Shown here: piece by piece, positions 902 to 17,707 of the stretch
Position numbering within the stretch: the first letter of the stretch is position 1
Layout: each line of letters starts with the position of its first letter
Assembly: GCA_040256005.1 (NCBI GenBank)
Contig: JBDZWC010000002.1
Span: 57,208-74,914 of the forward strand
Reading direction: 5' to 3'
Source of the DNA: Deinococcaceae bacterium
Lineage (GTDB): Bacteria; Deinococcota; Deinococci; Deinococcales; Trueperaceae
DNA length: 17,707 nt
The notes under the pieces: generated by a model
Database searches by the model: none
Seen by the model: the letters and a program-made list of their open reading frames with translations, nothing else
What the model was told of the DNA's origin: nothing
Program-made: the position numbers and the translations under genes

Positions 902-959
902 GGCGTCGCGCGCCCAAGGGCTCTCCGGCTCCGGCGTGCGGGGCCGAGCGCCTCGTCGC

Positions 960-1403
960 TCAGAGCCCGAAGATCACCGCCACCGCGACTCCCAGCACCG
1001 CCCCCACGATCACCTGGGGGTAGGTGTGGCCCAGCAGCGTCCGCAGCGCCTGCGGCTTGAAGCCCTCGTCGAAGAGGTGGCCCAGCTCGCTGACCAGCTC
1101 GTTGATCAGCTCGGCCTGCAGGCCCGCGGCCCGCCTGATACCGGTGGCGTCGTACATGACGATGGACCCGAACACGGCGGCTATCGCGAAGTGCGCGCTC
1201 TGCCAGCCGTACTGCATGCCGAGCGCGACGGCCAGGGCCGACACGGCGGCGCTGTGAGACGATGGCATGCCGCCCGTCTCCAGCAGTCGAGCGAACGCCC
1301 AGCGCCGCTCCGTGAGCACGACGATGATCAGCTTCAGGATCTGGGCCACCGCCGTGGCCACGATCGCGACCATCAGCGGCGTGTTGGCCACCAACTCGCT
1401 CAC
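960..1403 (-). CDS. Divergent PAP2 / DUF212 (acid phosphatase/vanadium haloperoxidase-related) membrane protein, 147 aa
   Basis: Motifs GGMPSSHSA, VMYDATGIRRAAGxQA and LGHTxxQV. Start reassigned to GTG 1403, which overlaps the folD stop (GTGA); the ORF-track extension to 1862 overlaps folD. Confidence 0.88.
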   Translation of the reverse strand: MSELVANTPLMVAIVATAVAQILKLIIVVLTERRWAFARLLETGGMPSSHSAAVSALAVALGMQYGWQSAHFAIAAVFGSIVMYDATGIRRAAGLQAELINELVSELGHLFDEGFKPQALRTLLGHTYPQVIVGAVLGVAVAVIFGL

Positions 1404-2239: not shown

Positions 2240-2769
2240 CGCTCGTCTCCTTCGTCGTTCGCTCGCGCCGGCACGCCGTTTTCGCCGCCCGCCCGCTCCG
2301 AGACGGACTCCGGGGCGCCGAGAGCCTCGGACCTGAGGGCCCTCACCACCTTCGCCAGCACGCCGTTGACGAAGCGGCCCGAGTCGTCTCCGCCGTAGCG
2401 TTTGGCCACCCGTACCGCCATCTCGAGCACCACCGGCGGCGGCGTGTCGAGGTGGAGGAGCTCCGTCACGGCCACGCGCAGGACGTTGAGGTCGGTCTGT
2501 GACATCTGTGAGAACGTCCAGCCGGCGATGTTCTCCTCGAGGACCGCGTCCACACGCTCGCCGTCGGCGGCGTAGGCCTTGAGGAGCGTGTCGGCGAGCT
2601 CTAGCGCCGTCCTGTCGAGCGGGTCGCCGTAGGGATCGTCCGCGCTGTCCTCGGGTTCCTCCGCTAGGTCGGACCGCACACCGGACCACACCGCCAGCAG
2701 GTCATCCGAGCCTCGCTCCGCCTGGAAGAGGGTGCGGAACGCGAGCTCCCTCGCCCGCCGCCTAGCCAA
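2236..2769 (-). CDS. nusB: Transcription antitermination factor NusB
   Basis: N-terminal RRRARELAFRTLFQ, DLNVLRVA, C-terminal AKRYGGDDSGRFVNGVLAK; conserved position before folD; TTG start. Confidence 0.94.
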   Translation of the reverse strand: MARRRARELAFRTLFQAERGSDDLLAVWSGVRSDLAEEPEDSADDPYGDPLDRTALELADTLLKAYAADGERVDAVLEENIAGWTFSQMSQTDLNVLRVAVTELLHLDTPPPVVLEMAVRVAKRYGGDDSGRFVNGVLAKVVRALRSEALGAPESVSERAGGENGVPARANDEGDER

Positions 2770-2789
2770 CTGGGTACCAGCGCACGCTC

Positions 2790-3128
2790 TTAGCCACCGC
2801 TCTGCTTGAGGTCGACGTCCTCGACCGTCACGTCGACCGTCGCGACGCTCAGGCCCGTCATCGACGCGACCGCTTCCCGCACCGCACGCTGGGCTTCGAG
2901 CGCAACCTTCGGGATCTCGACGCCGTAATCGACGCAGACGGTCAGGGACGCGGAGATGCCGTCCTCACCACGATCGATCTGAATGCCCTTGGCCCGCCTG
3001 CCCGTGAGGATCTCGCCGACCCTCACCGGCGGCTGCACCGTGTGGAGCCCCTCGACCTGATCGAGGGCCAGCTGGACGATGCCGTAGAGGACGTCGGGCG
3101 AGATCTCCAGGTCGGTCGCCTCGGTCAT
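2790..3128 (-). CDS. Asp23/Gls24 family protein (YqhY-like)
   Basis: ISPDVL, VDYGVEIPKVALEAQRAVREAVASMTGLSVATVDVTVEDV; synteny accC-yqhY-nusB-folD as in Bacillus subtilis. Confidence 0.9.
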   Translation of the reverse strand: MTEATDLEISPDVLYGIVQLALDQVEGLHTVQPPVRVGEILTGRRAKGIQIDRGEDGISASLTVCVDYGVEIPKVALEAQRAVREAVASMTGLSVATVDVTVEDVDLKQSGG

Positions 3129-4462
3129 GACGTCATCCTACGCGGGACGAAGTTGGTGTAGACCTGCCCGCGACGGAAGAAAGCGTTGTCCAGCACGCGG
3201 AGGTGGAACGGGATCGTCGTCTTGACGCCTTCGATGACGGTCTCGCGCAGGCTGCGCTCCATACGCATGATGGCCTCGTCCCTCGTGGGTGCCCAGGCGA
3301 TGATCTTGGCCAGCAGGCTGTCGTAGTTGGGCGGGATCCGGTAGCCGGTGTACACGTGGGAGTCCACACGCACCCCCGGCCCGCCCGGCCAGTGCACGTC
3401 CGTGATCGTGCCGGCCATGGGCCGGAAGTCGTGGTCTGGGTCCTCGGCGTTGATCCGCACCTCGATCGCGTGGCCGTCCACTGCCAGGTCCTCCTGCCGC
3501 CAGGAGAGCCCTTCCCCGGCCGCCACCTTGATCTGCTCCTGCACCAGGTCGGTGCCCGTGATCATCTCGGTGACGGGGTGCTCGACCTGGATGCGGGTGT
3601 TCATCTCGGAGAAGTAGAAGTTGCCCTGCTTGTCGACGAGGAACTCGCAGGTGCCGGCGCCGCGGTACGAGACGTGTCGTGCCAGCTTGACGGCGGCCTC
3701 GGCGATGCTCCGGCGCAGGTCGTCAGCCAGCAGCGACGGCCCCTCCTCCAGCAGCTTCTGGTAGCGGCGCTGGATGGAGCAGTCGCGCTCGAACAGCTGG
3801 ACGACGTTCCCTTCGCCGTCCCCGAACACCTGTACCTCGATGTGCTTGGGCTCCTCGATGTACTTCTCGATGTAGAGCTCGGGGTTGCCGAACGCGGCCC
3901 TGGCCTCCTCCTGGGCGTTGACGAACTGACGCTCCAGATCCGTGTAGCTCTGCACGACGCGCATGCCGCGCCCGCCTCCGCCGGCCGAGGCCTTCAGGAT
4001 CAGCGGGAAACCCACCTCGTCCGCGAACGTGCGGGCGCCGTCGAGCCCGTGGAGGGCGCCGCTGCCGGGCGTCACCGGCACGCCCGCCTCCTGGGCCAGG
4101 GCCCGAGCCGCGGACTTGTCACCGATACGGGCGATGTTCTCGGGCCGGGGCCCGATGAAGACGAGGTTGTGCTCCTCGCATTTCGTGGCGAACTCGGCGT
4201 TCTCGGCGAGGAAGCCGTAGCCCGGGTGCACGGCGTCGGCGCCGGTCACGACGGCGGCGGCCAGGATGTTCCTGACGTTGAGGTAGCTGTTGCCGGCCGG
4301 CGGGGGCCCGATGCACACGGCCTCGTCGGCGAGCAGCACGGGCAACGAGCTCTCGTCCGCCTGGGAGTAGACGACGACCGTCTGTACCCCCAGCTCGCGA
4401 GCGGCACGCACGACCCTGAGGGCGATCTCGCCCCGGTTGGCTACGAGGATCTTACGGAACAT
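3125..4462 (-). CDS. accC: Acetyl-CoA carboxylase, biotin carboxylase subunit
   Basis: KILVANRGEIALR, HPGYGFLAEN, KASAGGGGRGMR, ERDCSIQRRYQK, EMNTRIQVEHPVTE, YDSLLAKII. Confidence 0.97.
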   Translation of the reverse strand: MFRKILVANRGEIALRVVRAARELGVQTVVVYSQADESSLPVLLADEAVCIGPPPAGNSYLNVRNILAAAVVTGADAVHPGYGFLAENAEFATKCEEHNLVFIGPRPENIARIGDKSAARALAQEAGVPVTPGSGALHGLDGARTFADEVGFPLILKASAGGGGRGMRVVQSYTDLERQFVNAQEEARAAFGNPELYIEKYIEEPKHIEVQVFGDGEGNVVQLFERDCSIQRRYQKLLEEGPSLLADDLRRSIAEAAVKLARHVSYRGAGTCEFLVDKQGNFYFSEMNTRIQVEHPVTEMITGTDLVQEQIKVAAGEGLSWRQEDLAVDGHAIEVRINAEDPDHDFRPMAGTITDVHWPGGPGVRVDSHVYTGYRIPPNYDSLLAKIIAWAPTRDEAIMRMERSLRETVIEGVKTTIPFHLRVLDNAFFRRGQVYTNFVPRRMTS

Positions 4463-4473
4463 GCTGTCGTCCT

Positions 4474-4962
<489 letters not shown>

Positions 4963-4967
4963 GCCGC

Positions 4968-5525
4968 TCAGGCCCTACCCAGGTACTCGCCGGTGCGCGT
5001 ATCGACCCTGACGACCTCGCCCTGCTCGATGAACAGCGGCACGTTGACCGTGGCGCCGGACTCCAGCTCCGCGGGCTTGGACCCGCCCGAGACCGTGTCG
5101 CCCCTCACGCCGGGATCGGTCCTCGTGATGGCGAGCTCGACGACGTTGGGCAGGGTCACCTTGAGCGGCCTGCCCTGGTAGTAGTCGACGGTCACCTCGA
5201 CGTTCTCCTTGAGGAACCTGGCGCCGTCGCCGATCTGATCGCGCGTCAGCGTGGGCTGCTCGAACGTCTCGTTGTCCATGAACGTGTAGTGGTCGCCGTC
5301 GACGTACAGGAACGACATCGTCCGGTACTCGATGAAGATGTCCTGGATCTTCTCCGTCGCGTTGAAGGAGCGCTCGACGATCGAGCCGGTCTCCAGGTTG
5401 CGGAACTTGGCGACCATCTTGGCGCCGCCGCGGCCGATCTTCTGATGCTGGTAATCGACGACCTCCCAGAGACCGCCGTCCATCTCGACCTTGGTGCCGC
5501 TGCGCAGGTCTGTAACGCTGATCAT
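4968..5525 (-). CDS. efp: Translation elongation factor P (Arg32 type)
   Basis: MISVTDLR, HQKIGRGGA, PGVRGDTVSGGSKPA, VPLFIEQGE, VDTRTGEY. Confidence 0.98.
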   Translation of the reverse strand: MISVTDLRSGTKVEMDGGLWEVVDYQHQKIGRGGAKMVAKFRNLETGSIVERSFNATEKIQDIFIEYRTMSFLYVDGDHYTFMDNETFEQPTLTRDQIGDGARFLKENVEVTVDYYQGRPLKVTLPNVVELAITRTDPGVRGDTVSGGSKPAELESGATVNVPLFIEQGEVVRVDTRTGEYLGRA

Positions 5526-5705: not shown

Positions 5706-6623
5706 CTACGCCCGCAGGTCCACGACCGTCGGCCCCAGCCCCGCCTGCGCGATCAGCTGGTCGTAGCGCTCGCGGCCCAGTTCCCCGTTCGCGCCCTCCA
5801 CGGCGACCAGCGCTGCCTCGAGGAGGTTGGTGCCCACCGACCTGCCGCCCACCCGTGGCGTGGTCGTGATCAGTCGCCTCGCGCCCCTGCTCCTGAGCAT
5901 CTCCACGTCGGCCGGCGTCGTCGTGTTCGTGAGCACGTCCTTGTCTGCCAGGTCACGTGGCGCGTAGCGGCGGATGTAGTGCCAGTCGCCGGCGATGACG
6001 TCGGCCCAAGCGAAGTGCTGCGCCAGGCCGGGTCGCGAGCCCGCCGACTCCTGCGAGGATCCCGTCGGGTAGAACCACCTCACCGGCAGCCGCGCGATCA
6101 CGGGCAGCAGCACGGCGGCGACCCGCCGCAGCGTCCCGAGCGACCTCAGGGGCACGTCGACGCCGAGGCCGAACACGATGTCGCCGAAGATGACGTCCGC
6201 GCCCAGCCCAGCGATCGTCTCCGCCATCCCGAAGCGGTCGACGGAGTTGACCAGCAGCACGCGCCTGTCCCGCCAGCCCAGTAGCTCGTCGAGAGCCGTG
6301 ACCGCATGGCGCTCAAGGCTGTCCTTCAGACCGGCGCCGCAGACGACGGGCGTCCGCCGCGCGGCCGAGGCGATGCGCAGCGAGTCGCGCAGGTAGTACC
6401 GCCTGTCACCTACCCGCAGGTAGAGGTCGGTGCCGCCCAGGCCGATCGCCTCGACCTGGCCGTCGAGCTCGGCCACCAACCGGCGGGCCGCGGCCAGGTC
6501 TCCCCCGGTGCCGAGGCGCCGGAGACGCACCCGCACGCCGAGCAGGTCGAGGTAGTCGTCCATGTCCCGCGTCTTAGAGCCGATCGAGACGCTGACGACG
6601 GTCTTCTCGGGCGCGGCTGACAT
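5706..6623 (-). CDS. Conserved hypothetical protein of the family often auto-annotated 'quinate 5-dehydrogenase' (function unverified)
   Basis: VVSVSIGSKTRD, ELDGQVEAIGLGGTDLY, TPVVCGAGLKDSLER, VDRFGMA, IAGDWHYIRRYAP, ITTTPRVGGRSVGTNLLEA recalled as family motifs. The CDS is confident; the function is not. Confidence 0.75.
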   Translation of the reverse strand: MSAAPEKTVVSVSIGSKTRDMDDYLDLLGVRVRLRRLGTGGDLAAARRLVAELDGQVEAIGLGGTDLYLRVGDRRYYLRDSLRIASAARRTPVVCGAGLKDSLERHAVTALDELLGWRDRRVLLVNSVDRFGMAETIAGLGADVIFGDIVFGLGVDVPLRSLGTLRRVAAVLLPVIARLPVRWFYPTGSSQESAGSRPGLAQHFAWADVIAGDWHYIRRYAPRDLADKDVLTNTTTPADVEMLRSRGARRLITTTPRVGGRSVGTNLLEAALVAVEGANGELGRERYDQLIAQAGLGPTVVDLRA

Positions 6624-6670
6624 GAGCGCACCACGCTACCGCGCTGCGGACAGCGTGGTGTGCGATCCCT

Positions 6671-7219
6671 TCAGGACAGCGACTTGGCGTACCAGTCGAG
6701 GAGCGGTTTCGCGTCGATCGCGAACGTGTAGCCGAGACGTTCCCAGAAGCGCCGCGCCCTGGGGTTCTCCCCGTAGATGCTGGCGAGCAGCCTGCGCACC
6801 TTGCCCTTGAGGCGGGCCTCGAGGTCCTGAGCGCAGGCTCCGCCGATGCCGCGGCTCTGGAGGCCGGGGCTGACCAGCAACAGGTTGACGGTGGCGTCGC
6901 CGACCTCCGGGTAGTCGAGCTTGTAGTCGAGGTAACCAGCCACGACCCCGCCCGACACCGGATCTTTGATCACCGGTTGCACGCCGCTGGCGTGTTCGGG
7001 CCGCACGAGGACCAGCTCGACGTGCCGGCGTGGGTCCGCTCCCGCGGTGGCGAGGTCTGTGCTGACCTCCTCGAGCGTCGGAATCGGGATCGAGATGATG
7101 TCGAAGTACGACGGTGTGGCCAGGTAGAGGCCGTGCACGAGCGGGGCGTCTGAGGCTTCGGCTGGACGGGTCGTTACCGCGGTCTTCGTGGCGTCGTCGG
7201 GAGGCGTAGCGAGCAACAC
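6671..7219 (-). CDS. GNAT family N-acetyltransferase
   Basis: Acetyl-CoA-binding motif A (LLLVSPGLQSRGIGG) and motif B (NPRARRFWERLGY); AGGAG about 10 nt upstream of the GTG. Confidence 0.88.
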   Translation of the reverse strand: MLLATPPDDATKTAVTTRPAEASDAPLVHGLYLATPSYFDIISIPIPTLEEVSTDLATAGADPRRHVELVLVRPEHASGVQPVIKDPVSGGVVAGYLDYKLDYPEVGDATVNLLLVSPGLQSRGIGGACAQDLEARLKGKVRRLLASIYGENPRARRFWERLGYTFAIDAKPLLDWYAKSLS

Positions 7220-7298
7220 GTCAGGTCATCTCCTGCGGTGTGTCAACGACGAGGTGTCGAGCGGGCAGTGGGAACCCGCCTGGATGCGCTTTCCCCGG

Positions 7299-7307
7299 AT
7301 GATACCA
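7299..7307 (-). promoter_or_regulatory. Putative extended -10 promoter (TGgTATCAT) for the GNAT gene
   Basis: Near-consensus TGnTATCAT on the minus strand, about 80 nt upstream of the start. Confidence 0.5.
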
Positions 7308-7397
7308 GCGAGCGATGAGGGCTTCAGTGTCCGGGAGCCCTCTGCCGATGAGGCCTAGGCAGCGTCCCCAGGTCCCATCTTCGCGCCCTCGCAGCGC

Positions 7398-7423
7398 CGC
7401 CGCCCTTACCCGTCAGGGCGGCG
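7398..7423. other. Perfect 9-bp inverted repeat between divergent promoters
   Basis: CGCCGCCCT (7398-7406), 8-nt loop, AGGGCGGCG (7415-7423). Confidence 0.45.
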
Positions 7424-7440
7424 AGGAACGTGAGAACTCC

Positions 7441-7470
7441 TTGCCCTGGGAGCGGGCCGTGCCGTAGGGT
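7441..7470 (+). promoter_or_regulatory. Putative sigma70 promoter of the spt operon (-35 TTGCCC, 18 nt, -10 TAGGGT)
   Basis: TTGCCC at 7441-7446 and TAGGGT at 7465-7470, upstream of the GGAGG RBS at 7543-7547. Confidence 0.35.
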
Positions 7471-7552
7471 TATTCATGCTGGCGCCGACTTCGGTACGGG
7501 GTACCGCGAGGTCATCCTTGGCACAACGGCGCTTACCCCCCTGGAGGAACCC

Positions 7553-8788
7553 TTGTCCGAGGTAGCGCCACCAGAAGCGCACTCCGTCACGATGAAGAAG
7601 GCTGAGGACGCCTTCGCGAAGGCGTTCGCCTTCCGCCGGGCCGACGAGGCCGCCGCGGCGGGCATGCACCCCTACTTCAAGCCGATAGCTTCCCAGCGGG
7701 GCGGCACGGTCATGGTGAACGGCCACGAGATGGTCATCACCGGCTCCAACGACTACCTGGGCCTCACTCAGGACCCGCGTCTGAAGGAGGCAGCCCGCTC
7801 GGCGCTGGACGACTTCGGCACCTCGTGCACCGGCTCGCGGTTCCTGACCGGGACGCTGACCCTGCACGAGGAGCTCGAGCACAGGCTCGCGGAGTTCCTC
7901 GGCAAGGAGTCGGCCCTCACGTTCTCGGCCGGCTACCTGGGCTGCCTCTCGGTGATCTCCGCCCTGGCCGGCAGGCACGACATCCTGTACTACGACCGCG
8001 AGAACCACGCTTCGCTGTACGACGCCGCCAAGCTCTCGTTCGCTTCGTTGCGCAAGTTCGAGCACAACGATCTCGCCGGCCTGGCCCGGCTCCTGGAGCA
8101 GGACGCGGGCCGACCGGGTGGACGCATCATCGTCACCGACGGCGTGTTCTCGATGAGCGGCCATATCGCCAAGCTGCCAGAGCTCGTGGAGATCAAGCGC
8201 CGCTACGGCGCCAGGCTGATCGTCGACGACGCCCACGCCACCGGCGTGCTCGGCCCCGACGGGCGCGGTACGGGTGACCACTTCGGGCTGGTGGACGAGA
8301 TAGACGTGGTCATCGGCACGTTCTCGAAGTCGCTGGCCAGCGTCGGCGGGTTCATGGCGGCCGACAGGGCCGTCGTGCAGTTCGTGAAGCACTCCGCGCG
8401 GCCGTTCATCTTCACCGCCGCCCTGCCGGCCATGCAGATGGCGGCGGCGCTCAAGGCACTCGAGATCATGCAGGCCGAACCCGAGCTGCGCGTACAGCTG
8501 TGGGAGAACGTCCACCGGCTCCGGAACGGCATGAACGAGCTGGGCTTCGACACCCTCGGGTCCGAGACGCCCATCGTGCCGGTGCTCGTCGGGCCCGACG
8601 AGCTGGCCATGGCCTTCTGGAAGGGCCTGTGGGAGGAGGGCGTCTTCACCACGCCCGCTCTGCCGCCGGGCGTGCCCAACGGCCAGTCGATCATCCGTAC
8701 CAGCGTCAACGCCAACCACACCGCCGAACAGCTCGACCGGCTCCTGTCCGCGTTCGCCTTGGTCGGCAGGCGGCTCGGCGTCATCTGA
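7553..8788 (+). CDS. spt: Serine palmitoyltransferase-type PLP-dependent alpha-oxoamine synthase, about 411 aa
   Basis: HPYFKPI, GSNDYLGLT, GTSCTGSRFLTGT, NHAS, DGVFSM, VDDAH and PLP-lysine motif GTFSKSLASVGGF (SPT-type; BioF/Kbl typically have GTLGKA). Immediately followed by a bCerS-type GNAT. Start taken at TTG 7553 after GGAGG; ATG 7592 is an alternative. Confidence 0.8.
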   Translation: MSEVAPPEAHSVTMKKAEDAFAKAFAFRRADEAAAAGMHPYFKPIASQRGGTVMVNGHEMVITGSNDYLGLTQDPRLKEAARSALDDFGTSCTGSRFLTGTLTLHEELEHRLAEFLGKESALTFSAGYLGCLSVISALAGRHDILYYDRENHASLYDAAKLSFASLRKFEHNDLAGLARLLEQDAGRPGGRIIVTDGVFSMSGHIAKLPELVEIKRRYGARLIVDDAHATGVLGPDGRGTGDHFGLVDEIDVVIGTFSKSLASVGGFMAADRAVVQFVKHSARPFIFTAALPAMQMAAALKALEIMQAEPELRVQLWENVHRLRNGMNELGFDTLGSETPIVPVLVGPDELAMAFWKGLWEEGVFTTPALPPGVPNGQSIIRTSVNANHTAEQLDRLLSAFALVGRRLGVI

Positions 8789-8796
8789 GGACCGCC

Positions 8797-9912
8797 GTGG
8801 GGCAGCTCACGGTCGAGACGGCGGAGGACGGGGCCGGGGTAAGAGCCTTCGTCGACTACCCGTACGCCAAGTACAAGGGCGACCCCAACTGGGTGGCGCC
8901 GCTGCGCATCTCGCAGTTCGAGATGCTCGACGAGAAGAAGAACCCCTTCTGGCGGCACGCCGAGAAGGCGCTCTACCTGGCCAGGCGCGACGGTCGCGTG
9001 GTGGGCCGGGTGGCGTACGTGCGCGACGACGCGCACATCAGGGTGCACGACGAGCAGCTGGCGTTCTTCGGTTTCTTCGAGGCGGAGGACGAGGAGGCGG
9101 CGAAGGCGTTGCTCCAGGTCGTGGAGAGCCACGCCTCCGCCGAGGGCCTAACGGCGGTCAGGGGCCCCATCAACCCGAGCATGAACGACGGCGCCGGCTT
9201 CCAGGTGGACGCGTTCGACGCCAAGCCCGCGGTGATGATGCCGCAGAACCCGGCGGAGTACCCACGTTGGGTAGAGGGAGCGGGCTACAGCAAGATCAAG
9301 GACCTCTACTGCTTCGAGTTCGACACGCACAAGCCCTTCGACGAGCGCATCGACCGCATCGCCGAGCGCACCAAGTCGCGTTACCCGATCGTCGTGCGGC
9401 CCGCCGACATGAAGCGCTTCGACCGCGAGATCGAGATACTCAAGACGATCCACACCGAGGCGTGGGAACAGAACTGGGGCAACGTGCCCCTCACCGACGC
9501 CGAGGTCGAGCACCTGGCGAACGACCTCAAGATGATCATCGACCCCGAGCTGGTCCTGTTCCTCGAGTACCGCGGCGAGCCCGTGGCGTTGGCCGTGACG
9601 GTACCCGACCTGAACCAGGTGCTCGCGCGGTTCAACGGGCGTCTCCTACCGTTCGGCATCGTCCACCTGCTGAGGCGCAAGCAGATCATCGACAGGGCCC
9701 GCCTCGTCATGCTCGGCGTGTTGCCAGAGCACCGCAACAAGGGCTACGACCTGCTGCTGATACACGAGGTCGTGAAGCGCGCCCGCGAGCGTGGGATCAA
9801 CGGTGGTGAGTGCGGCTGGACCCTCGAGGACAACGTGCGCATCAACAACGCTATCGAGGCCGTCGGCGGCGTGCGCAGCAAGACCTACAGGATCTTCCAG
9901 AAGGGGCTATGA
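8797..9912 (+). CDS. YghO/bCerS-family large GNAT N-acyltransferase (putative bacterial ceramide synthase), 371 aa
   Basis: YKGDPNWVAPL, KNPFWRH, GRVVGRVA, FGFFE, RGPINPSMN, MMPQNP, AWEQNWGNVPLT, PDLNQ, GRLLPFG, WTLEDN and KTYRIF match my recollection of the family. GTG 8797 is preceded by GAGGA, 8 nt after the spt stop. Confidence 0.8.
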   Translation: MGQLTVETAEDGAGVRAFVDYPYAKYKGDPNWVAPLRISQFEMLDEKKNPFWRHAEKALYLARRDGRVVGRVAYVRDDAHIRVHDEQLAFFGFFEAEDEEAAKALLQVVESHASAEGLTAVRGPINPSMNDGAGFQVDAFDAKPAVMMPQNPAEYPRWVEGAGYSKIKDLYCFEFDTHKPFDERIDRIAERTKSRYPIVVRPADMKRFDREIEILKTIHTEAWEQNWGNVPLTDAEVEHLANDLKMIIDPELVLFLEYRGEPVALAVTVPDLNQVLARFNGRLLPFGIVHLLRRKQIIDRARLVMLGVLPEHRNKGYDLLLIHEVVKRARERGINGGECGWTLEDNVRINNAIEAVGGVRSKTYRIFQKGL

Positions 9913-10643
9913 CCCTGGGCGGGGCGCTGAGGGCGCTACTCGGCGACCTCGCCTCCCTCTTCACACGCCGCGGCTCCAGGACCTGGTTCCTGCTCTCGGC
10001 AGCCACCGTGCTGCAGGTGGCGTTCTGGTACCTGGCGACGCCGGGGCCTCAGCTCATCGGCTACGCCCCGCGCGACCTGCCAACCGCCGCGGTAGGCATC
10101 ACCTGGTCGCTCGTCACGCTGCTGGCGGTGCCCGCCCTTCTGTTCACGACCACGGGGGGCACCCTCAGGGAGATGGGCCTGACGCGCGGCGACCCTCGCT
10201 TCGGCTGGCCGGCCGTCGGGGTCTGCGCGCTCGTGGCGGTGCCGCTCGTGGCGCTGGCCTCGGGGGGCGCGTCCGAACTGGCGGCCGCGTACCCCTGGGC
10301 GGGCACGGAGATCGGCAGGTCGTTGGGCACCCTGGCCGGCTGGGCCGTGCTGTACGCGCTTTACTACCTGGCCTTCGAGGCCTTCTACCGCGGTTTCCTG
10401 CTGCGGGCACTCGAGGCGCCGTTCGGCACCAGCCTGGCCGTGTGGTTACAGGCGTTCGCCGCGACGCTCGTCCACCTCGGGAAGCCCCTGCCCGAGGTGC
10501 TGGCTGCCCTCCCCGCCAGCCTGCTGTTCGGCGTGCTGGCGGTGCGCTCGAGGTCGATCTTCTACCCGGCGCTCGTGCACCTGGCGATCGGCCTGACATT
10601 GGACGTCGCCCTGCTCGCCCGCGCGGGTAACCTCCTGTCGTGA
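9909..10643 (+). CDS. CPBP (Abi / CAAX protease type II) intramembrane glutamic metalloprotease-like protein, 244 aa
   Basis: Multiple hydrophobic helices; motif 1 variant FEAFYRGFLL, motif 2 TLVHLGKPLPE, motif 3 RSIFYPALVHLAIGLTLD. ATG 9909 overlaps the upstream TGA (ATGA). Confidence 0.82.
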   Translation: MTLGGALRALLGDLASLFTRRGSRTWFLLSAATVLQVAFWYLATPGPQLIGYAPRDLPTAAVGITWSLVTLLAVPALLFTTTGGTLREMGLTRGDPRFGWPAVGVCALVAVPLVALASGGASELAAAYPWAGTEIGRSLGTLAGWAVLYALYYLAFEAFYRGFLLRALEAPFGTSLAVWLQAFAATLVHLGKPLPEVLAALPASLLFGVLAVRSRSIFYPALVHLAIGLTLDVALLARAGNLLS

Positions 10644-11632
10644 AGGTGCTCGTCACCGGCGCTCATGGGTTCCTCGGCAGCTACATCACCGAGGGGCTCG
10701 TCGCCGGCGGCGACGAGGTCGTGGCGCTGGTGTCGCCATGGGGCGACGTCGAGAACCTGGCCTCGGCCCAGGCGACGGCGCCCGTCGAGGTCGTGCGGGC
10801 GGACCTCAGCCAGCAAGGCGACCTGTCGTGGGCGCTCGAGGGCGTCGACGCCGTCGTGCACGCCGCTGCCCGGGCGGCCGACTGGGGCCCATGGGACGCG
10901 TTCTACCGGACCAACGTACTGGGGACCCAACGCCTGCTCGACGCCGCGGCCAAGGCCGGCACGAGACGGTTCGTGCTCATCTCCAGCGTCGCCGTCCACA
11001 CCTACCGGGGGTTCAGGGACGCCGACCCGCGCACTTTGCCCCGCGACAACGTCTCCAACCCGTACGCCTACTCGAAGATCCTCGCCGAGAACCTGGTGAT
11101 GACCAGACCGGACGTGGAGGGCGTCGTCGTCAGGCCGGGGCTGTGGCCTTTCGGCGCGCGCGACGCGACCTTCGAGCGGGTCGAGAGGGCGGTCGCGCGC
11201 GGCGTGATGCCGCTGCTCAAGCGCGGCGAGAGCGTCCTGAACACCACCTACGCGACGAACTTCGCTGACGGCGTGGCCCTGGCGGTGCGTTCACCCGTCG
11301 CCGCCGGCCGCGTGTACCTGTTCGCCGACCACGGCGCCCCGAGTTGGCGTGAGCTGTTCGCCGAGATGGCGCGCCTCGTCGGCAGCGCCCCTCCGCGTCT
11401 GAGCGTGCCACGCCGTCCCGCGCGGGCCATCGCGACGGGCGTGGAGGCCACCTGGCGGGCGCTCTTCCCCGCCACCGAGCCGCCGATGACGCGCTACCGC
11501 GCCGGCCTCATGGCCCACGACGTCCATTTCTCGATCCACCACGCCGTGGAGGAGCTCGGGTACGAACCGCGTGTCACGTGGCGCGAGGGGCTCGCCATCG
11601 CGCTCGAGGCGCTCCGCTCCGGCTCGCGCTGA
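10640..11632 (+). CDS. Extended SDR, NAD(P)-dependent 3-beta-HSD/OleD-like reductase (candidate 3-oxo-ceramide reductase)
   Basis: VLVTGAHGFLG, VVHAAA, TNVLGT, ISSVAV, YAYSK (YxxxK), VRPG, EPPMTRY, ELGYEP; GTGA overlap with the upstream gene. The substrate is inferred from context. Confidence 0.85.
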   Translation: MKVLVTGAHGFLGSYITEGLVAGGDEVVALVSPWGDVENLASAQATAPVEVVRADLSQQGDLSWALEGVDAVVHAAARAADWGPWDAFYRTNVLGTQRLLDAAAKAGTRRFVLISSVAVHTYRGFRDADPRTLPRDNVSNPYAYSKILAENLVMTRPDVEGVVVRPGLWPFGARDATFERVERAVARGVMPLLKRGESVLNTTYATNFADGVALAVRSPVAAGRVYLFADHGAPSWRELFAEMARLVGSAPPRLSVPRRPARAIATGVEATWRALFPATEPPMTRYRAGLMAHDVHFSIHHAVEELGYEPRVTWREGLAIALEALRSGSR

Positions 11633-12861
11633 TGCCCGCGGTGCTCTTCGCGACGATCGCCGCGGGTGGCGGCCACGTCGCCACCGCCCGCGCGATGGCG
11701 GAGGCGGTCACCGCGGCTTCCGGTGGGTCCGTGCAGGTCCGCGTCTCCGACGTGATGGCGGAGTACGGCCCGCAGAGCCTCGACGCCAGGCACAAGGCTT
11801 CCTGGAAAGCGCTACTGGGCATGCCTCCCCTCGTCAGGGCCAGCCAACGCCTGATGGACGCGGCGCCGCCGCTGAGCCGGGCCGTGCAGAACCGACTGCT
11901 GCAGGGCTTCACGACCAACGTGACCGCGGCGTTGAACCAAGAGGCGCCGACCCTCGTCGTCGTCAACCACGGCTGGCTGGCAACGGCCTTCACGCGCGCC
12001 CGTGCCCTTCACGGGCTGAAGAGCCGCGTGGCCGTGTTCGCGACGGAGCCGTTCGACGCCAGCGCGCTGTGGTCGGCACCGCTGGCGGAGACGGTGCTCG
12101 CCCCCAGCGCCGCCGCCGCCGAGGACCTGGTCCGGCTGGGCGTACCCAGCGCAGCCGTGCACGTGGCGGGCTACCCGGTGGCGGAGCGCTTCACGACCGC
12201 CCCTGACCGTGCCACCGCCAGGGAACGGTTCGCCCTGGGCGACGACTTCGTCGTGCTGATGAGCCTCGGCGCCGAGGGCGTGGCGTCTTCCGCAGCGATC
12301 GCCGCGGCGCTGGCGTTGGGCCGCGCCGGCTGCGCGGTGCTGTGCGTCACCGGGCGCAACGAGGAGCTGGCCGGCCGGTTGACGCGCGAGGCCGCCCTTG
12401 CGGGGCTGTCCGACAGGGTGAGGGCGCTGGGCTTCGTTGAGCGCATGGAGCTGCCGCTGGCGGCCTGCGACGTGATGGTGGGCAAGGCCGGGCCGGCCAG
12501 CACGCTGGAGGCGCTGGCGGTCGGCCGACCTGTGATCGCGGCCACGTACGCCGGCCTCAACGAGCTGGCCGTCGTCCGCTTCCTGGCAGCTAACGGCCTG
12601 GGCGAGCACGCCGGTTCCTTCACGGCGCTGCCTGACGTAGTGGCACGGTGGCGGGACGACCCTGGGCGCCTGGAAAGCGCCGGCCGAACGGCCGCCGCGC
12701 TCGACTTCGGCGCCATGACGGCCGGCATAGGAGCCTTCCTGGCCGCGCTGGCCGTCCACGGTGAGGCGGATCCGGCGCTGTTGAAGCCCGGGGCGCTCGC
12801 GGCCATCACCAAGCGCTCGCTCGCCCCTGCCCCTGCGCCGGTGACAGGGGTCGCGCCGTGA
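11632..12861 (+). CDS. GT28 MGDG-synthase/UgtP-like lipid glycosyltransferase, 409 aa
   Basis: AAGGGHVATARA, AGYPV, CVTGRNEEL, LGFVERM, ACDVMVGKAGPASTLEAL; ATG 11632 in a TGATG overlap. Confidence 0.85.
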   Translation: MPAVLFATIAAGGGHVATARAMAEAVTAASGGSVQVRVSDVMAEYGPQSLDARHKASWKALLGMPPLVRASQRLMDAAPPLSRAVQNRLLQGFTTNVTAALNQEAPTLVVVNHGWLATAFTRARALHGLKSRVAVFATEPFDASALWSAPLAETVLAPSAAAAEDLVRLGVPSAAVHVAGYPVAERFTTAPDRATARERFALGDDFVVLMSLGAEGVASSAAIAAALALGRAGCAVLCVTGRNEELAGRLTREAALAGLSDRVRALGFVERMELPLAACDVMVGKAGPASTLEALAVGRPVIAATYAGLNELAVVRFLAANGLGEHAGSFTALPDVVARWRDDPGRLESAGRTAAALDFGAMTAGIGAFLAALAVHGEADPALLKPGALAAITKRSLAPAPAPVTGVAP

Positions 12862-13901
12862 AGCGGCTCATCGGCGTGCTCGCCCTCTCGCTTGTGCTGG
12901 GCTTCGGCGGCCTCTACCTCGCGACCCGCGAGTCCGTCTTCTCCGTCGCCACCTACGCGGGCCTGAGGCTGGACCCTACCGTCGTCACCGTCATCGCGCT
13001 CAGCCTCCTGCTGCTGTGGCTCGCCCCGGTGGTGAAGATCAAGGCGCTGCTGGCGTCCCAGGGCCACAGGATCACGGCCTGGGAAGCGTTCACCGCCCAC
13101 GTGGGCCAGGTGTTCGGCACGGCCATGACGCCCAGCGGCACCGGCGGCGCGCCCGGCCTGGTGTTGGCGTTGGAACGCTCGGGCGTGCCCCTGGGCACCA
13201 GCGTGGGCGTGGCGGTGCAGCTCTTCATCCTCGACCTGGCGGCCCTCGGGGTGCTCATACCGATAGGCGTGGCCTACATCGTCGTCATCAGCCCGCTCAG
13301 CCTGCCGCCCGCCCTGACGGCGCTGGCGCTGGGGGCCGCGGCTGTCGCGCTGGTGGGAGCGATCGTGCTGGCGCGGTACCCGGTGGCCCTCTACCGGCTC
13401 ATCAAGCGGGTGTCGACATGGCGGCTTCTGCGGCGCTTCCGCGACCGGCTGACGCGGCTGGGTCGGGAGTACTACGTGAGCGCCGTGGCGTTTCGCGACC
13501 TGCCGCTCAAGCGCTTCGTGTACCTGCACGCCACCAACGTGGTCGCGTGGCTGGCCAACTTCCTGCTGCTGTGGGCGCTCCTGTCTGGCTACGGCGCCCG
13601 GGCCCGCCTCCTCGACGTGCTGGCAGTGCTGTCGATCATCACCCTCGTCGGCTTCTTCGTCCCGACGCCGGGGGCCGCCGGTTTCACGGAGCTGATGGTG
13701 GGCCTGGTGGTCGACAACAGCACGTCGCAGACGTCGATCGCGGCTCCGGTCGCGCTATGGCGGGCCGGCACGTTCTACGTCGTCTACCTGATCGGACCCT
13801 TGGTCGCCTGGCTGCTCATCGCGAGGCGGCCGCGTCGGCGCCCCGGCCGGCGGGGCGCTCGCCCCGCCTCGCCCGCGGACGGCCCAAGCCCAGGGGCCTG
13901 A
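12858..13901 (+). CDS. LPG_synthase_TM / UPF0104 flippase-like membrane protein
   Basis: Polytopic membrane protein with MTPSGTGGAP, FVPTPGAAGFTE and LWRAGTFY motifs; GTGA overlap with the GT28 gene. Confidence 0.85.
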   Translation: MKRLIGVLALSLVLGFGGLYLATRESVFSVATYAGLRLDPTVVTVIALSLLLLWLAPVVKIKALLASQGHRITAWEAFTAHVGQVFGTAMTPSGTGGAPGLVLALERSGVPLGTSVGVAVQLFILDLAALGVLIPIGVAYIVVISPLSLPPALTALALGAAAVALVGAIVLARYPVALYRLIKRVSTWRLLRRFRDRLTRLGREYYVSAVAFRDLPLKRFVYLHATNVVAWLANFLLLWALLSGYGARARLLDVLAVLSIITLVGFFVPTPGAAGFTELMVGLVVDNSTSQTSIAAPVALWRAGTFYVVYLIGPLVAWLLIARRPRRRPGRRGARPASPADGPSPGA

Positions 13902-15687
13902 CGAACACGCCGTCCTTCAGCTTGTCGGGTAGCGTCGCGAACAGTCGCAGCAACGGCACCTCCCGCGTGCCAGCGACGCGAGCCGGTGGGCGGCGCATGA
14001 ACGCGACGCGGGCCACCACCCTCGCCACGCTGGACGGCTCCGCTGCGTTCGCCTCTCCCCACAGGTTCGACTCGCGCAGCCGCTTCAGGTAGGCCGCCCA
14101 CGGCTCACCCTGCCGGCGGGCCTCGGCGTCGAGCAGCGTCTTCGCTCGGCGCGCGAAGCCGGTGCGCATCGCGCCGGGCTGAACGAGGACGACGTCCACG
14201 CCGAACGGCCTGAGCTCGAGACGCAGGGCGTCCGTGAACATCTCCAGGGCCGCCTTGGCCGCCGAGTAGGCCCCCATGAAAGGCGTTACCAACAGCGCGT
14301 TCGTCGAGCTCACGTTGACGATCGTGCCGCCGCCACGGCGCCGCATGCCCGGCGCGACGGCGCGAGCGGCCCTGACCGGGGCCAGGGCGTTGAGCTCGAG
14401 CTGCCTCATGACGTCTTCCCATGGCTGTGACTCGACAGGTCCGGGGCTGAGCGCCCCGACCGTGCTGACGAGCAGGTCGATCGCGCCTTCGCGCTCCTCG
14501 ACGTGGGCGACCGCGGCGGCCAGGCTCTCGTCGGCCGTCGCGTCAACCTCCAGGTGTTCGATGCGTGCCGCCCGCTCGGCGTCAGCAGCGTCGGCCCCGT
14601 GGGCGGGAGCGGAGCGCACGTCGGCGCCGTACACCCTCACGTACCTGCCGGCCAGCTCCAGGGCGACCTCGCGCCCGAGGCCCGTGGCGGCGCCGACGAC
14701 GAGCGCCGTACGCGGGCCCGGAGCGAGACCCTCGTCGCGCAGCCAGGCGGCCGTGCTCGCCATGCCCTCCTGGAACGACACCCGTGGCGCGTAGCCCAGG
14801 ACGTCGCGCGCCGCCGAGCCGTCGAACCGCGCTGTGCTCATCAGGGTAGTCAGGGTCTCGGGGACGAAGCGCGGCGGTCCGGGCAGCAGCGACGTCAGCC
14901 TGCCCACCAGCGCCGCGCCCGAGCGCGCCAGGCCGGCCGGGACGCGCCTGAGCGGAACACCGAGCATCTTGGCGTAGGCACCGAAGAACTCGCCCGTGGA
15001 GACGTCGTGCCCGGTGACGTTGAAGGCCCTGCCGGCGGCGCCGCTAGCCTCCCCTGCCGCCGCGAACGCCCTGGCAACGTCCGCGACGTAGACGGCGTCC
15101 ACCCGGTGGGAGCCGTCGCCGAGCATGACGGGCAGCCCCTTGCGCATGGCGGCCACGGGCGCCAGGGTCCACGAGCCGGAGGCCGGCCCGTAGATCAGTG
15201 TGGGTCGCAACACGACCAACTCCGTGCCCGTCCCCTCCAGCGCCGCTTTCGCCGCCGCCTCGCCGCGCACCTTGCTGTCCCCGTAGGGATCCCCGGTCGC
15301 CACGAGCGGACGGTCCTCCGTGACCGTCCCCTCGGCCACCGGCCCGTACGCGGCCATGCTGCTGGCCAGCACGAGGCGCCTCACTCCGGCGTCAGCGGCC
15401 GCCCGGGCGAGGGCGGCAGTGCCCTCGACGTTCACCTGGTCAGCGAGGCCGGCGGGCGAGCCCATCCAGGCGGCTAGGTGCTGGACGACGTCGGCGCCAG
15501 CTACCAGCTGCGCGAGGGTCCGGGGGGTCAGGAGGTCGGCATGGACGGGCTCGGCGCCCATCTGTCTCGCCAGACCGGCCTGCTCGTCCGTCCTCACGGC
15601 GGCCCTCACCACGTGGCCGCTCGCGACGAGAAGCGGCACCAGTGCGCGACCGACACCGCCGGTGGCGCCGGTGACCGCGACGATCAC
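13816..15687 (-). CDS. Two-domain oxidoreductase: N-terminal extended SDR (about 325 aa) fused to a C-terminal classical SDR, 623 aa
   Basis: Domain 1: VAVTGATGGVG, HLAA, ASSMAAYG, YGDSK, LRPTLIYGP, LGYAP. Domain 2 (from about 14712): ALVVGAATGLG, IVNVSS, YSAAK, VQPGAMRT. True start GTG 15687 overlaps the GT4 stop, with AGGAGG upstream. Confidence 0.87.
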   Translation of the reverse strand: MIVAVTGATGGVGRALVPLLVASGHVVRAAVRTDEQAGLARQMGAEPVHADLLTPRTLAQLVAGADVVQHLAAWMGSPAGLADQVNVEGTAALARAAADAGVRRLVLASSMAAYGPVAEGTVTEDRPLVATGDPYGDSKVRGEAAAKAALEGTGTELVVLRPTLIYGPASGSWTLAPVAAMRKGLPVMLGDGSHRVDAVYVADVARAFAAAGEASGAAGRAFNVTGHDVSTGEFFGAYAKMLGVPLRRVPAGLARSGAALVGRLTSLLPGPPRFVPETLTTLMSTARFDGSAARDVLGYAPRVSFQEGMASTAAWLRDEGLAPGPRTALVVGAATGLGREVALELAGRYVRVYGADVRSAPAHGADAADAERAARIEHLEVDATADESLAAAVAHVEEREGAIDLLVSTVGALSPGPVESQPWEDVMRQLELNALAPVRAARAVAPGMRRRGGGTIVNVSSTNALLVTPFMGAYSAAKAALEMFTDALRLELRPFGVDVVLVQPGAMRTGFARRAKTLLDAEARRQGEPWAAYLKRLRESNLWGEANAAEPSSVARVVARVAFMRRPPARVAGTREVPLLRLFATLPDKLKDGVFVRPLGLGRPRARRGERPAGRGADAAASR

Positions 15688-16898
15688 GTCCTGGCGCCCT
15701 CCTGTTGGGCCGCGACGCGGCCGCGCGCGGGCCCGAAGGCCTTGCCCGCCGCCAGCCGTGGGCTCCTGGCGCCGCGCTTGGCGGAGACGAGGCCAGCGTA
15801 GAGCTGCTCGAGCCGAGCGGCGCTCAAGGCCACGTCGTGGCTGCGACCGTAGGCGCGGCCCCTCGTGCTCGCCGCCGCCAGCGCCTCCGGGTCCTCGAGC
15901 AAGGAGACGATGGCGCCGGCCTGCGCTCGAGGGTCGCCGGGCCGCACCACGGCACCGGCCCCAGCCTCGCGGACCAGCGATGGTACGGCGCTGCTCTGGT
16001 AGTCCCAGGCGAACACCGGGGCTCCCGACGCGAGCGCCTCCAAGGTCGCGATGCTCTGGAGCTCGGCCGGTGACGGCATGAGGAACGCTTCGGTGCGCGC
16101 CAGGAGCTCGAGCTTCTCGGCCTCGCCGACGAAGCCTGCCAGGGTGACGCGATGCTGCAGGCCGCGCCGGGCGATGGCCGCCTCCATCTCGCCGGCCAGG
16201 GGACCATGGCCCGCGATCGTCAGGTGATAGTGCTCGGGTAGCTCGTGCATGAGCGGCAAGAGGTCTAGCGGCCTCTTCTCCGGCGACAGGCGCCCCACGA
16301 ACGCGAGCCGCCTGACGCCCGTCTCGCGTGCCTCGGCCGCTGCGGTCGACCGCCGGATGCCGGCCAGGTCTATGCCGTTGGACACCGGCACCGGCTCCCT
16401 GTCCGTGAACGGCGTCACCAGCCTCGCCGCGTAGGGAGTCGGGGTCACCAGCAGGTCGGCGAGGCCGAACAGGTAGCGGTACCAGGTCGTGAGGAGCCGG
16501 GCCACGACGGGCCCCACGAGCGGAGCGTGGAGCGTGGATGTCTCGAGTTGGGTGTGGACGCCCATCACGACGGGCACGCGGCGGCGCCTGGCCAGATGGG
16601 CGGTGACGGCTGTGAGCGCCGCCGGCGTGTTGGCGTGCACGACATCGGCCCAGGCCACGTGGCGCGCGATGCGGCTGACGATGGGGTGGGCGAAACGGGT
16701 CTGCGTGGCTCCCAGGCGCCATGACGGCAGCCGGTCGACGCGGACGCCGTGAGGCGCCTGGGTGGGCCGCGGCTCGGCGCCGGCGAGCACCCTGATCTCG
16801 TGCCCGAGTCGCGCCAACGCGGCGACGTGCCCCTCGGTGGACCGCGCCTGGCCACCGAAGCCCGGGTAGACGTCATCGGCAACGAACAGGATCTTCAA
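15684..16898 (-). CDS. GT4 family glycosyltransferase, resembling diacylglycerol alpha-glucosyltransferases
   Basis: MKILFVADDVYPGFGG, DVVHANTP, PVVMGVHT, VSNGID, FVGRLSPEK, GHGPL and the E-x7-E motif SPAELQSIATLEALASGAPV; TTG start. Confidence 0.9.
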   Translation of the reverse strand: MKILFVADDVYPGFGGQARSTEGHVAALARLGHEIRVLAGAEPRPTQAPHGVRVDRLPSWRLGATQTRFAHPIVSRIARHVAWADVVHANTPAALTAVTAHLARRRRVPVVMGVHTQLETSTLHAPLVGPVVARLLTTWYRYLFGLADLLVTPTPYAARLVTPFTDREPVPVSNGIDLAGIRRSTAAAEARETGVRRLAFVGRLSPEKRPLDLLPLMHELPEHYHLTIAGHGPLAGEMEAAIARRGLQHRVTLAGFVGEAEKLELLARTEAFLMPSPAELQSIATLEALASGAPVFAWDYQSSAVPSLVREAGAGAVVRPGDPRAQAGAIVSLLEDPEALAAASTRGRAYGRSHDVALSAARLEQLYAGLVSAKRGARSPRLAAGKAFGPARGRVAAQQEGART

Positions 16899-17034
16899 CG
16901 CTTCAGCCTTCCGCCCGCCGGCATGCGTACGAGCGTCGCCCGTCTCTCATGGTCCGGCCACCGGAACGTAACACGGCTCCGTTAGCGCCGGGCGAGAGCG
17001 ACGAACCCTACTCGGGAGCGGCGTTCCCCACGGT

Positions 17035-17040
17035 TACACT
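17035..17040 (+). promoter_or_regulatory. Putative -10 box (TACACT) of a leaderless ABC permease transcript
   Basis: TACACT ends 6 nt before GTG 17047; no Shine-Dalgarno present. Confidence 0.55.
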
Positions 17041-17046
17041 GGCCCG

Positions 17047-17707
17047 GTGAGCACCCTCACGCGCCTGGCGTGGCGCAACCTGCTGCGACACCCATGGCGC
17101 TCCCTGGCCACGGCGTTGGGCATCGGCCTCGGCATCGCGGCCGTGCTGACCACGTTGTCGGTCGGCGACAACGTAGAAGCGAACCTCAGGTCCACCCTAA
17201 AGGCCGCCGCCGGCAAGGCCGACCTGGTCATCACGCCCGGGCCGTCCGGTCGCATCGTCTTCGAGTCGGCGCCCGTCCTGGCGGCGGTGCGGGCCCAGCC
17301 GGGCGTCGAGGCCGCGTACCCGGTGCTGAACACCAGGGCCGAGCCGTTACGCGAGGTCGAGGAGTTCGAGCGGTCGCCCATCCCCGGTGTGGACAGCGGC
17401 TTCCAGATCCAGGGCCGGCTCACGGAGTTCCCGGCCGACCTGCCGGCCGAGGCGAACGCCGGCACGCTGCCCACGGCCGGCTCGAACGGCATCGCCATCG
17501 CCGACGGCTTCGCCCAGGCGCGCGGCATCGGGGTAGGCGACGTGGTGCCGTTCACGACGGCGGGCGGCCTGGCCCAGCTGACGGTGACCGGCCTGCTCGA
17601 CGACGGCGTCGGCGTCGCCAGCACCAACGGCGGCCGCGTCGGCGACATGCACCTCTCCGACCACGAGCGGCTCGAACTGGCGGGCAGCCAGGACTATCGC
17701 TGGCGGC
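17047..17707 (+). CDS. MacB/FtsX-type ABC transporter permease, N-terminal part (runs off the window)
   Basis: Hand translation is open to the window end: MSTLTRLAWRNLLRHPWRSLATALGIGLGIAAVLTTLSVGDN...AQPGVEAAYPV...GIGVGDVV...LTVTGLL, a typical first TM helix plus periplasmic core. Absent from the ORF track because there is no stop in the window. Confidence 0.88.
   Translation, partial: MSTLTRLAWRNLLRHPWRSLATALGIGLGIAAVLTTLSVGDNVEANLRSTLKAAAGKADLVITPGPSGRIVFESAPVLAAVRAQPGVEAAYPVLNTRAEPLREVEEFERSPIPGVDSGFQIQGRLTEFPADLPAEANAGTLPTAGSNGIAIADGFAQARGIGVGDVVPFTTAGGLAQLTVTGLLDDGVGVASTNGGRVGDMHLSDHERLELAGSQDYRWR

Follow-up and report, generated by a model that had tools for sequence, protein, structure and literature searches.

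The window analysed here is a stretch of 17,707 nucleotides from contig JBDZWC010000002.1 of a Deinococcota bacterium (GenBank assembly GCA_040256005.1), in which positions 7553..16898 hold eight genes. On the basis of gene content, conservation, phylogeny and co-distribution, the locus most likely encodes the version of the bacterial ceramide pathway used by Trueperaceae, with further steps leading to a glycosphingolipid. The plus strand encodes an Spt-type alpha-oxoamine synthase (AOS; 7553..8788, 411 aa), a bCerS/YghO-type GNAT N-acyltransferase (8797..9912, 371 aa), a CPBP (Rce1-like) membrane protein (9909..10643), an extended short-chain dehydrogenase/reductase (SDR) that is a candidate 3-keto reductase (10640..11632), an MGD1/UgtP-like GT28 lipid glycosyltransferase that is a candidate ceramide glycosyltransferase (11632..12861), and an LPG_synthase_TM/flippase-like membrane protein that is a candidate glycolipid flippase (12858..13901). 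The minus strand encodes a fusion of an extended and a classical SDR (13816..15687) and a GT4 glycosyltransferase, candidate for addition of a second sugar (15684..16898). Successive plus-strand genes are joined by an 8-nt gap and then by overlaps of 4, 4, 1 and 4 nt; the minus-strand pair overlaps by 4 nt, and the convergent 3' ends share 86 nt. An earlier note, made from the sequence, had described these genes with their strands, overlaps and family labels, all of which were borne out by an open reading frame (ORF) check and by Pfam/NCBIfam scans. All eight ORFs are uninterrupted and have third-position GC contents of 0.90-0.94. The synthase is read from TTG at 7553, which fits the length of its nearest relatives; ATG at 7592 is an alternative start. 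The start/stop overlaps suggest that the cluster genes are organized as operons. A promoter and terminator scan of the window returned nothing exceeding chance level, and a single RNA run over the window gave short pieces only.

Because the closest named loci belong to Trueperaceae metagenome-assembled genomes (MAGs), the contig is assigned to this family (f1). One of these MAGs (L021) has an identical gene order, with 98% identity to the window for elongation factor P (EF-P), 97% for the synthase and 93% for the GNAT, in agreement with the Deinococcota origin and efp type proposed earlier. The source genome is 96.8% complete but lies in 250 contigs, and the window is the terminal part of one of them (C184), so that a foreign cluster joined to Deinococcota genes by assembly or binning has to be considered. 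We regard such an artefact as extremely improbable. The order beside accB-efp is kept in 11 of 15 Trueperaceae genomes, single-contig assemblies among them; contigs from three further studies cover the region with uniform depth; and GC is flat along the window. Records of one run (X2) cover 6423-8580, which joins the efp-side genes to spt, and 9938-17673. The same 15 genomes retain spt-bcerS adjacency in 14 cases, the continuation into CPBP and SDR in 13, and efp upstream in 11. The concern that the contig might be chimeric is thereby answered.

The synthase was first placed by structure and profile comparisons. A PDB search ranked the Sphingobacterium serine palmitoyltransferase (SPT) highest at 352 bits; Thermus BioF/Kbl scored 290 bits, cysteate acyltransferase scored 284 and Sphingomonas SPT reached 270-280. 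The top NCBIfam model was NF047600 (Bacteroidota Spt). Inspection of a 63-row quick tree, from which 12 near-identical or cut loci were excluded, reveals the synthase together with the Spts, separated from the BioF/Kbl/Thermus-type group (TIGR01825) with support of 100. This placement was repeated in a 54-row tree (92) and in a careful 37-row tree made from the 54-row set minus 17 rows (89/96). Named references in these trees were labelled by NCBIfam cut-off, and HemA is absent from them. The synthase falls in a clade comprising Trueperaceae, family f5 and Rubrobacter (support 99 and 100/99). The earlier call of an SPT-type synthase rather than BioF or Kbl is thus upheld by three trees and by the best structural match.

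Several results weigh against this assignment. The synthase scores below every NCBIfam Spt cut-off (433/640, 398/500 and 310/670 bits), the models being lineage-specific. Its identity to Bacteroides-type Spts is 41%, versus 40% to BioF and 42% to the Thermus-type Kbl/BioF group; identity to proteobacterial Spts is 34-41%, and none of the verified Spts is closely related to it. Order within the Spt side, including any nesting between verified Spts, is poorly supported, with the synthase clade possibly the deepest branch (support 75). Finally, Asn117 of SPT is Cys in the synthase and is likewise missing from cysteate transferases. A BioF or Kbl identity, in which the cluster would be unrelated to sphingolipids, could draw on the bioF model score of 384 bits of a 426-bit cut-off, on the label 8-amino-7-oxononanoate synthase that JGI gives to many relatives, and on a cyanobacterial Spt look-alike that groups with BioF and, as reported in PMC8895605, yielded no product. 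We nevertheless reject it as very improbable on the strength of the trees, scores below both the BioF and the Kbl (359/460 bits) cut-offs, a separate Kbl encoded elsewhere in the source genome, the adjoining bCerS gene and the lack of biotin or threonine genes nearby.

Active-site residues were compared to address which amino acid the Spt-type synthase may use. The pyridoxal phosphate (PLP) set of the AOS fold is fully kept (K259 in GTFSKS, H152, D225, H228, T256, S258), and 18 of 25 SPT site residues, listed from PMC10196870 and PMC13692747, are identical. In SPT numbering, Y27, N52, G80, S81, F83, H138, D210, H213, S243, K244 and the GTFSKS motif are retained, and positions S53, A79, N85, F114, N117, M271 and S273 are altered. 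Within the serine pocket of 3A2B, N52, G80, S81, H138 and S243 are kept, and N117, A79, S53 and M271 are not. The protein resembles its best structure and profile match, the Sphingobacterium multivorum SPT (3A2B, 8GUH; NF047600), in its N-terminal YF, GSR and GTFSKS motifs, and differs from it by the pocket-near substitutions N117C, N85T, S53D, A79T and M271I and by a profile score of 433 bits against 640.

Such changes raise the possibility that the synthase prefers alanine or glycine, giving 1-deoxy bases, or, less likely, cysteate, so that the product would be a ceramide analogue. The loss of Asn117 is clade-wide and accompanied by the other four pocket-near substitutions, S. multivorum SPT accepts Ala and Gly too (PMC10196870), and the cysteate acyltransferase CapB/SulA (28EH), which has the same fold, also lacks Asn117 according to PMC13692747. 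We consider a non-serine preference quite unlikely. A 1-deoxy base is not glycosylatable at C1, and the glycosyltransferases that travel with the locus argue for a C1 hydroxyl. Asn117 loss together with N85T recurs in a second clade (13 rows) linked to bCerS and CerR-type genes, which weakens the loss as a sign of a new substrate. A cysteate transferase is rejected: unlike CapB/SulA, the synthase lacks Lys280, Ala82, Glu187, Phe245 and Ala249 of that remodelled pocket, with Ala at the Lys280 site and Ser at the Ala82 site, and a protein that does carry cysteate-transferase motifs (L175) is placed outside the synthase clade in the 54- and 37-row trees. L-serine is retained as the most likely predicted substrate. 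Synthase residues 99 and 131 correspond to SPT 85 and 117; among 40 Spt-side rows, Thr85 always accompanies Asn117 loss (21 rows) and Asn85 accompanies Asn117 (19 rows), a pattern drawn from two clades only. A lone Spt-side synthase was also observed on a Priestia megaterium plasmid (CP109762; L084:6938-8152), scoring 522 bits on NF047600, with no bCerS within the 14 kb examined.

The second gene encodes a candidate for the acyltransferase expected beside Spt. Its product, ACYLTRANSFERASE (8797..9912), aligns over its full length to E. coli YghO with 29% identity (E 2e-56), and is 32% and 36% identical to the spt-cluster GNATs of Sphingomonas and Roseomonas, respectively; these three, and not Caulobacter bCerS, served as the bCerS references. 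A GNAT tree unites Trueperaceae, f5 and Rubrobacter in a group that also takes in one acidobacterial row. By sequence, the protein is a bCerS/YghO homologue linked to spt, as the earlier note had proposed from its family resemblance. A structure search found no solved bCerS structure.

The earlier note had set the locus beside the Caulobacter set of Spt, bCerS and CerR. The first two types hold, but neither SDR of the window is a CerR orthologue (approximately unbiased (AU) test, p ~1e-4). The catalytic residues S115, Y142 and K146 are invariant in the alignment of the 10640 SDR. Against the two window SDRs, the SDR of the E. coli cluster reaches 57 and 56 bits, versus 100-144 bits for CerR-type proteins; the spt-cluster SDRs of E. 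coli BL21 and Roseomonas, rather than Caulobacter CerR, served as the CerR references. No CerR-type gene was found in the source genome. In phylogeny, the 10640 SDR clusters with SDRs from a Bacteroidota MAG and from metagenome contigs (100/100), apart from the CerR type, and a tree forcing it together with local CerR-type proteins is rejected (AU p 9.9e-5). A diverged CerR is thus dismissed as its identity.

The distribution of the two SDR types was examined in 37 Trueperaceae genomes, 33 with Spt and 4 without. Thirty Spt-bearing genomes have the window-type SDR, and in the other three a CerR-type SDR adjoins the cluster; in no case are the two types both present or both absent. The four genomes that lack Spt have neither type. 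The double SDR and one other SDR in genome G030 gave weak cross-matches (E 1e-26 to 1e-30), which were not scored as CerR-type. All six f5 genomes examined have a CerR-like match. Because the two SDR types are distributed in this complementary manner, we propose that the 10640 SDR replaces CerR as the 3-keto reductase. The proposal appears reasonably probable, and its basis is the pattern of mutual exclusion, not homology or chemistry. The closest fold is that of Gox2253, followed by sugar epimerases; the nucleotide-sugar epimerase folds fit nearly as well, a point that counts against a reductase.

The CPBP protein at 9909..10643, whose presence the earlier note recorded and left unexplained, is a fixed partner of the 10640 SDR. 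Its gene occurs in 31 of the 33 Spt-bearing genomes, namely the 30 with the window-type SDR and one more, and in none of the 4 Spt-lacking ones. The protein matches PF02517 and adopts a CPBP fold like those of SpdC (6U0O, Z 15.7) and Rce1 (4CAD, Z 12.0). CPBP glutamic proteases carry the catalytic motifs EExxxR and HxxxN. Residues E157, R161, H189, E196, H224 and D232 are conserved in the window protein, and all of these but H189 are invariant across a 25-row alignment. Complete protease motifs are not present in any of the 25 rows, which read F/Y/W-E-x-x-x-R and HxxxG. Compared with Rce1 and SpdC, the protein shares the fold and the xExxxR, H and H motifs, and differs in the replacement of the first Glu by F/Y/W, in the change of HxxxN to HxxxG..D, and in a context of lipid synthesis.

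Metagenomes were scanned with a Bacteroidota CPBP homologue, yielding 35 loci drawn partly from related samples. A window-type SDR stands beside CPBP in 24 of the 29 loci with room downstream, and a PAP2_3 gene adjoins it in 23 of the 30 with room upstream. PAP2_3 is a domain of inositol-phosphoceramide synthases. Both spt and bcerS lie near CPBP in 7 of the 17 loci with at least 3.3 kb upstream; in the other 10 they were not found within 5 kb, a count unfavourable to an exclusive sphingolipid role. CPBP and SDR also lie inside the Spt-bCerS operon of a named Bacteroidota MAG (L043). Since the pairing recurs in loci of independent lineages, CPBP and SDR make up a portable module found in sphingolipid operons. 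A plasmid search gave no CPBP match. Seven low-GC contigs, many from related samples, carry spt-bcerS-PAP2_3-CPBP (L116:1496-6414, L117, L124, L132, L134, L136, L139), with the SDR next in five of the seven; these are candidates for a phosphosphingolipid version of the same module.

The two remaining plus-strand genes follow Spt in their distribution, so that the membership in the cluster once suggested for the GT28 and flippase-like genes is supported. Among the Trueperaceae genomes, 30 of the 33 that bear Spt have a strong GT28 orthologue, as against none of the 4 that lack Spt. The flippase-like protein (PF03706; TIGR00374 above cut-off) is encoded in 31 of 33 and 0 of 4 of these genomes, respectively, as well as in 6/6 f5 and 0/18 other genomes. 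Nearest to the GT28 protein among solved structures are MGD1 (E 7e-21) and a processive diacylglycerol glucosyltransferase. MGD1/UgtP-type enzymes are able to accept ceramide in vitro. A weak GT28 paralogue lies on a separate contig of the source genome; it occurs whether or not a genome has Spt, and diacylglycerol may be its acceptor.

These relationships bear on whether the genes downstream of a ceramide backbone instead act on other lipids. The SDR would then be a nucleotide-sugar epimerase, GT28, GT4 and the flippase would serve diacylglycerol or diol glycolipids, and the ceramide would stay 3-oxo or be reduced by an unlinked enzyme. The epimerase-like SDR fold is compatible with such an arrangement, as is the fact that the closest solved GT28 relatives glycosylate diacylglycerol, which speaks against ceramide as the acceptor. 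The polar lipids of Truepera radiovictrix, moreover, are described in PMC3072082 as an uncharacterised mix of glycolipids and phospholipids; the same paper describes anteiso/iso fatty acids as well as long-chain diols. We judge this arrangement unlikely. No CerR-type gene was found in the source genome, the window-type and CerR-type SDRs are never jointly present or jointly absent in 33 genomes, a separate GT28 paralogue is available even in genomes lacking Spt, and the CPBP-SDR pair occurs in Spt operons that have PAP2_3 instead of glycosyltransferases.

The minus-strand genes, assigned by Pfam, are additions of particular lineages. GT4 is found in 15 of 36 Trueperaceae genomes and in 0 of 24 others. 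The double SDR is scarcer still, being seen only in close relatives and L061. Its N half joins the clade of the 10640 SDR, and its C half scores 145 bits against the cut-off of 400 for the 3-ketodihydrosphingosine reductase KdsR (NF049977), with generic SDR models scoring higher. A role as supplier of KdsR activity is unsupported, given this score and the absence of the gene from most Trueperaceae. Rather than a one-off locus, the cluster is a real, family-wide Spt-bCerS core to which GT4 and the double SDR are added in particular lineages. Other genera carry UDP-galactopyranose mutase, GT2, other GT4 or a second GT28 within the cluster, with inserted sugar genes at L030:8611-9726, L060:15076-16182, L065:13389-14510, L036:2731-3876, L037:14402-15568 and L069:4736-5974. 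This suggests head groups that vary across genera and are in part galactofuranose.

To place the Spt-bCerS core within the phylum, an even sample of 300 Deinococcota genomes at least 80% complete was surveyed (101 f1, 11 f5, 188 others), as the earlier note had proposed. An Spt orthologue is present in 81/101 Trueperaceae, 10/11 f5 and 0/188 other genomes, and a bCerS homologue in 86/101, 11/11 and 0/188, respectively; one unpublished genome (G264) is included in both counts. Kin genomes are not independent, and the co-distribution counts are overstated to that extent, which tempers the case made from them. In one genome, the bCerS homologue (G224:C8:2887-3960) has 10 stops within the match, indicating a broken gene or an assembly error. 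A single-gene RpoB tree of 12 rows groups f5 with f2 (99/99), not with f1; we take f2-f4 to be the Deinococcus, Marinithermus and Thermus families. The simplest reading is that Spt-bCerS is an old trait lost in f2, and an early transfer between f1 and f5 may be an alternative to that loss.

LpxC was found in 33/36 Trueperaceae, 6/6 f5, 0/6 f2, 1/6 f3 and 3/6 f4 genomes, the copy of the source genome lying at C66:18543-19289, and was not found in the D. radiodurans and T. thermophilus controls. Trueperaceae and f5 genomes have it with or without Spt. Each of five genomes examined has three LptF/G copies. As most Trueperaceae possess LpxC, the predicted lipid would occur beside lipid A and not as a substitute for it; a sphingolipid in place of lipopolysaccharide is rejected.

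A related operon resides on plasmid 1 of Rubrobacter radiotolerans RSPS-4 (NZ_CP007515; L083:13854-19446), in the order spt-bcerS-CerR-type SDR-lipoteichoic acid (LTA)-synthase-family gene. Its Spt and bCerS are 73% and 52% identical to those of the window, with the same order and Spt clade. Unlike Trueperaceae, this operon uses a CerR-type SDR and an LTA-synthase-family gene, and there is no CPBP in the 29 kb examined. Rubrobacter Spt joins f1 while f5 stays outside (support 99), which implies transfer between phyla. A sister position of Rubrobacter to Trueperaceae is compatible with the AU tests (p 0.27, 0.15 and 0.67), and the transfer may have run in either direction. No study of this plasmid operon was found in the literature. 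The same three genes, then GT28, occur in an Actinomycetota MAG (L035, unpublished genome G307) that was present in several trees; the Rubrobacter conclusion is independent of it.

Taken together, the genes suggest a pathway whose probable product is a glycosyl-(dihydro)ceramide. The PLP synthase would, with good confidence, join L-serine to a long, probably branched, acyl thioester to give a 3-keto long-chain base, which the bCerS-type GNAT would, with similar confidence, N-acylate. With moderate confidence, the 10640 SDR would then reduce the 3-keto group in CerR's stead, with CPBP acting alongside it at the membrane as a scaffold or lipid-handling enzyme. Attachment of the first hexose to ceramide by GT28 is somewhat favoured, and GT4, or GT2, a second GT28 or UDP-galactopyranose mutase in other genera, may diversify the head group. 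Transfer of the glycolipid over the inner membrane by the LPG_synthase_TM protein, acting as a flippase, is an even call.

The Spt-bCerS-CerR route to ceramide is established (PMC11087976). As in Caulobacter crescentus, described in PMC11087976 and PMC11324152, an Spt-type synthase and a GNAT bCerS are clustered with an SDR in the operon. Unlike in C. crescentus, the window cluster has no CerR orthologue, acyl carrier protein, acyl-CoA ligase or LptFG, adds CPBP, GT28 and LPG_synthase_TM, and has an Spt from a distant clade. A statement in PMC11087976 holds that no sphingolipid flippase had been identified, and PMC11324152 names a potential flippase of another sphingolipid cluster. The Black Sea survey in PMC11334938 predicted Spt-like genes in up to 40 phyla, which tempers any surprise at the present locus; its clade B likewise comprises Spt-like proteins with bCerS nearby, and it already proposed non-homologous replacement of bCerS or CerR. 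Its main text and preprint do not name Deinococcota or Truepera, nor does the preprint name Rubrobacter, and its supplements may list them; the available text holds no mention of the CPBP-SDR module. PMC6801134 and 10.1101/2022.08.11.503646 yielded nothing decisive for the cluster. Our literature search found no sphingolipid report for Deinococcota, Truepera or Rubrobacter, with the limit that the 2022 Nat Chem Biol paper in which the ceramide pathway was defined and the supplements of PMC11334938 may list such genomes.

The type of pathway is thus already known, and what would be new is the lineage, the non-CerR reductase tied to CPBP, and the GT28 and flippase candidates. The locus predicts sphingolipids in a phylum known lipid-wise from Deinococcus and Thermus, where the genes were not found, and supplies candidates for several missing pieces of bacterial sphingolipid biology: a reductase other than CerR, a flippase, a ceramide-acting GT28 and a CPBP subfamily with a role in lipids. 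A wider picture, tentative and less likely than not, would make glycosphingolipids an old envelope trait of Trueperaceae and a second Deinococcales family (f5), beside lipid A, and absent from the Deinococcus- and Thermus-like families. Most Trueperaceae would rely on a second ceramide reductase of unrelated origin, coupled to a CPBP protein whose role had shifted from proteolysis to the handling of lipids, with export by LPG_synthase_TM; the module would recur in distant phyla, and Spt-bCerS would have been exchanged with the radiation-resistant monoderm Rubrobacter.

The cluster is flanked by genes of other kinds. Window positions 239-5525 hold a housekeeping run in which a ComF-like phosphoribosyltransferase (the first gene), DUF212 and efp were recognized by Pfam/NCBIfam scan; folD, nusB, an Asp23-like gene, accC and accB are presumed from translations. 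On the minus strand at 5706-6623, a 305-aa protein has zero Pfam/NCBIfam matches and carries the automatic label 'quinate 5-dehydrogenase'; an Anaerolineales MAG (L042) encodes a homologue some 3 kb away from a bCerS-like gene. At the opposite end (17047-17707, plus strand), a MacB-like ABC permease is truncated by the contig end. It is found 3' of the cluster in 10 of 15 Trueperaceae genomes and could be an exporter or a mere conserved neighbour.

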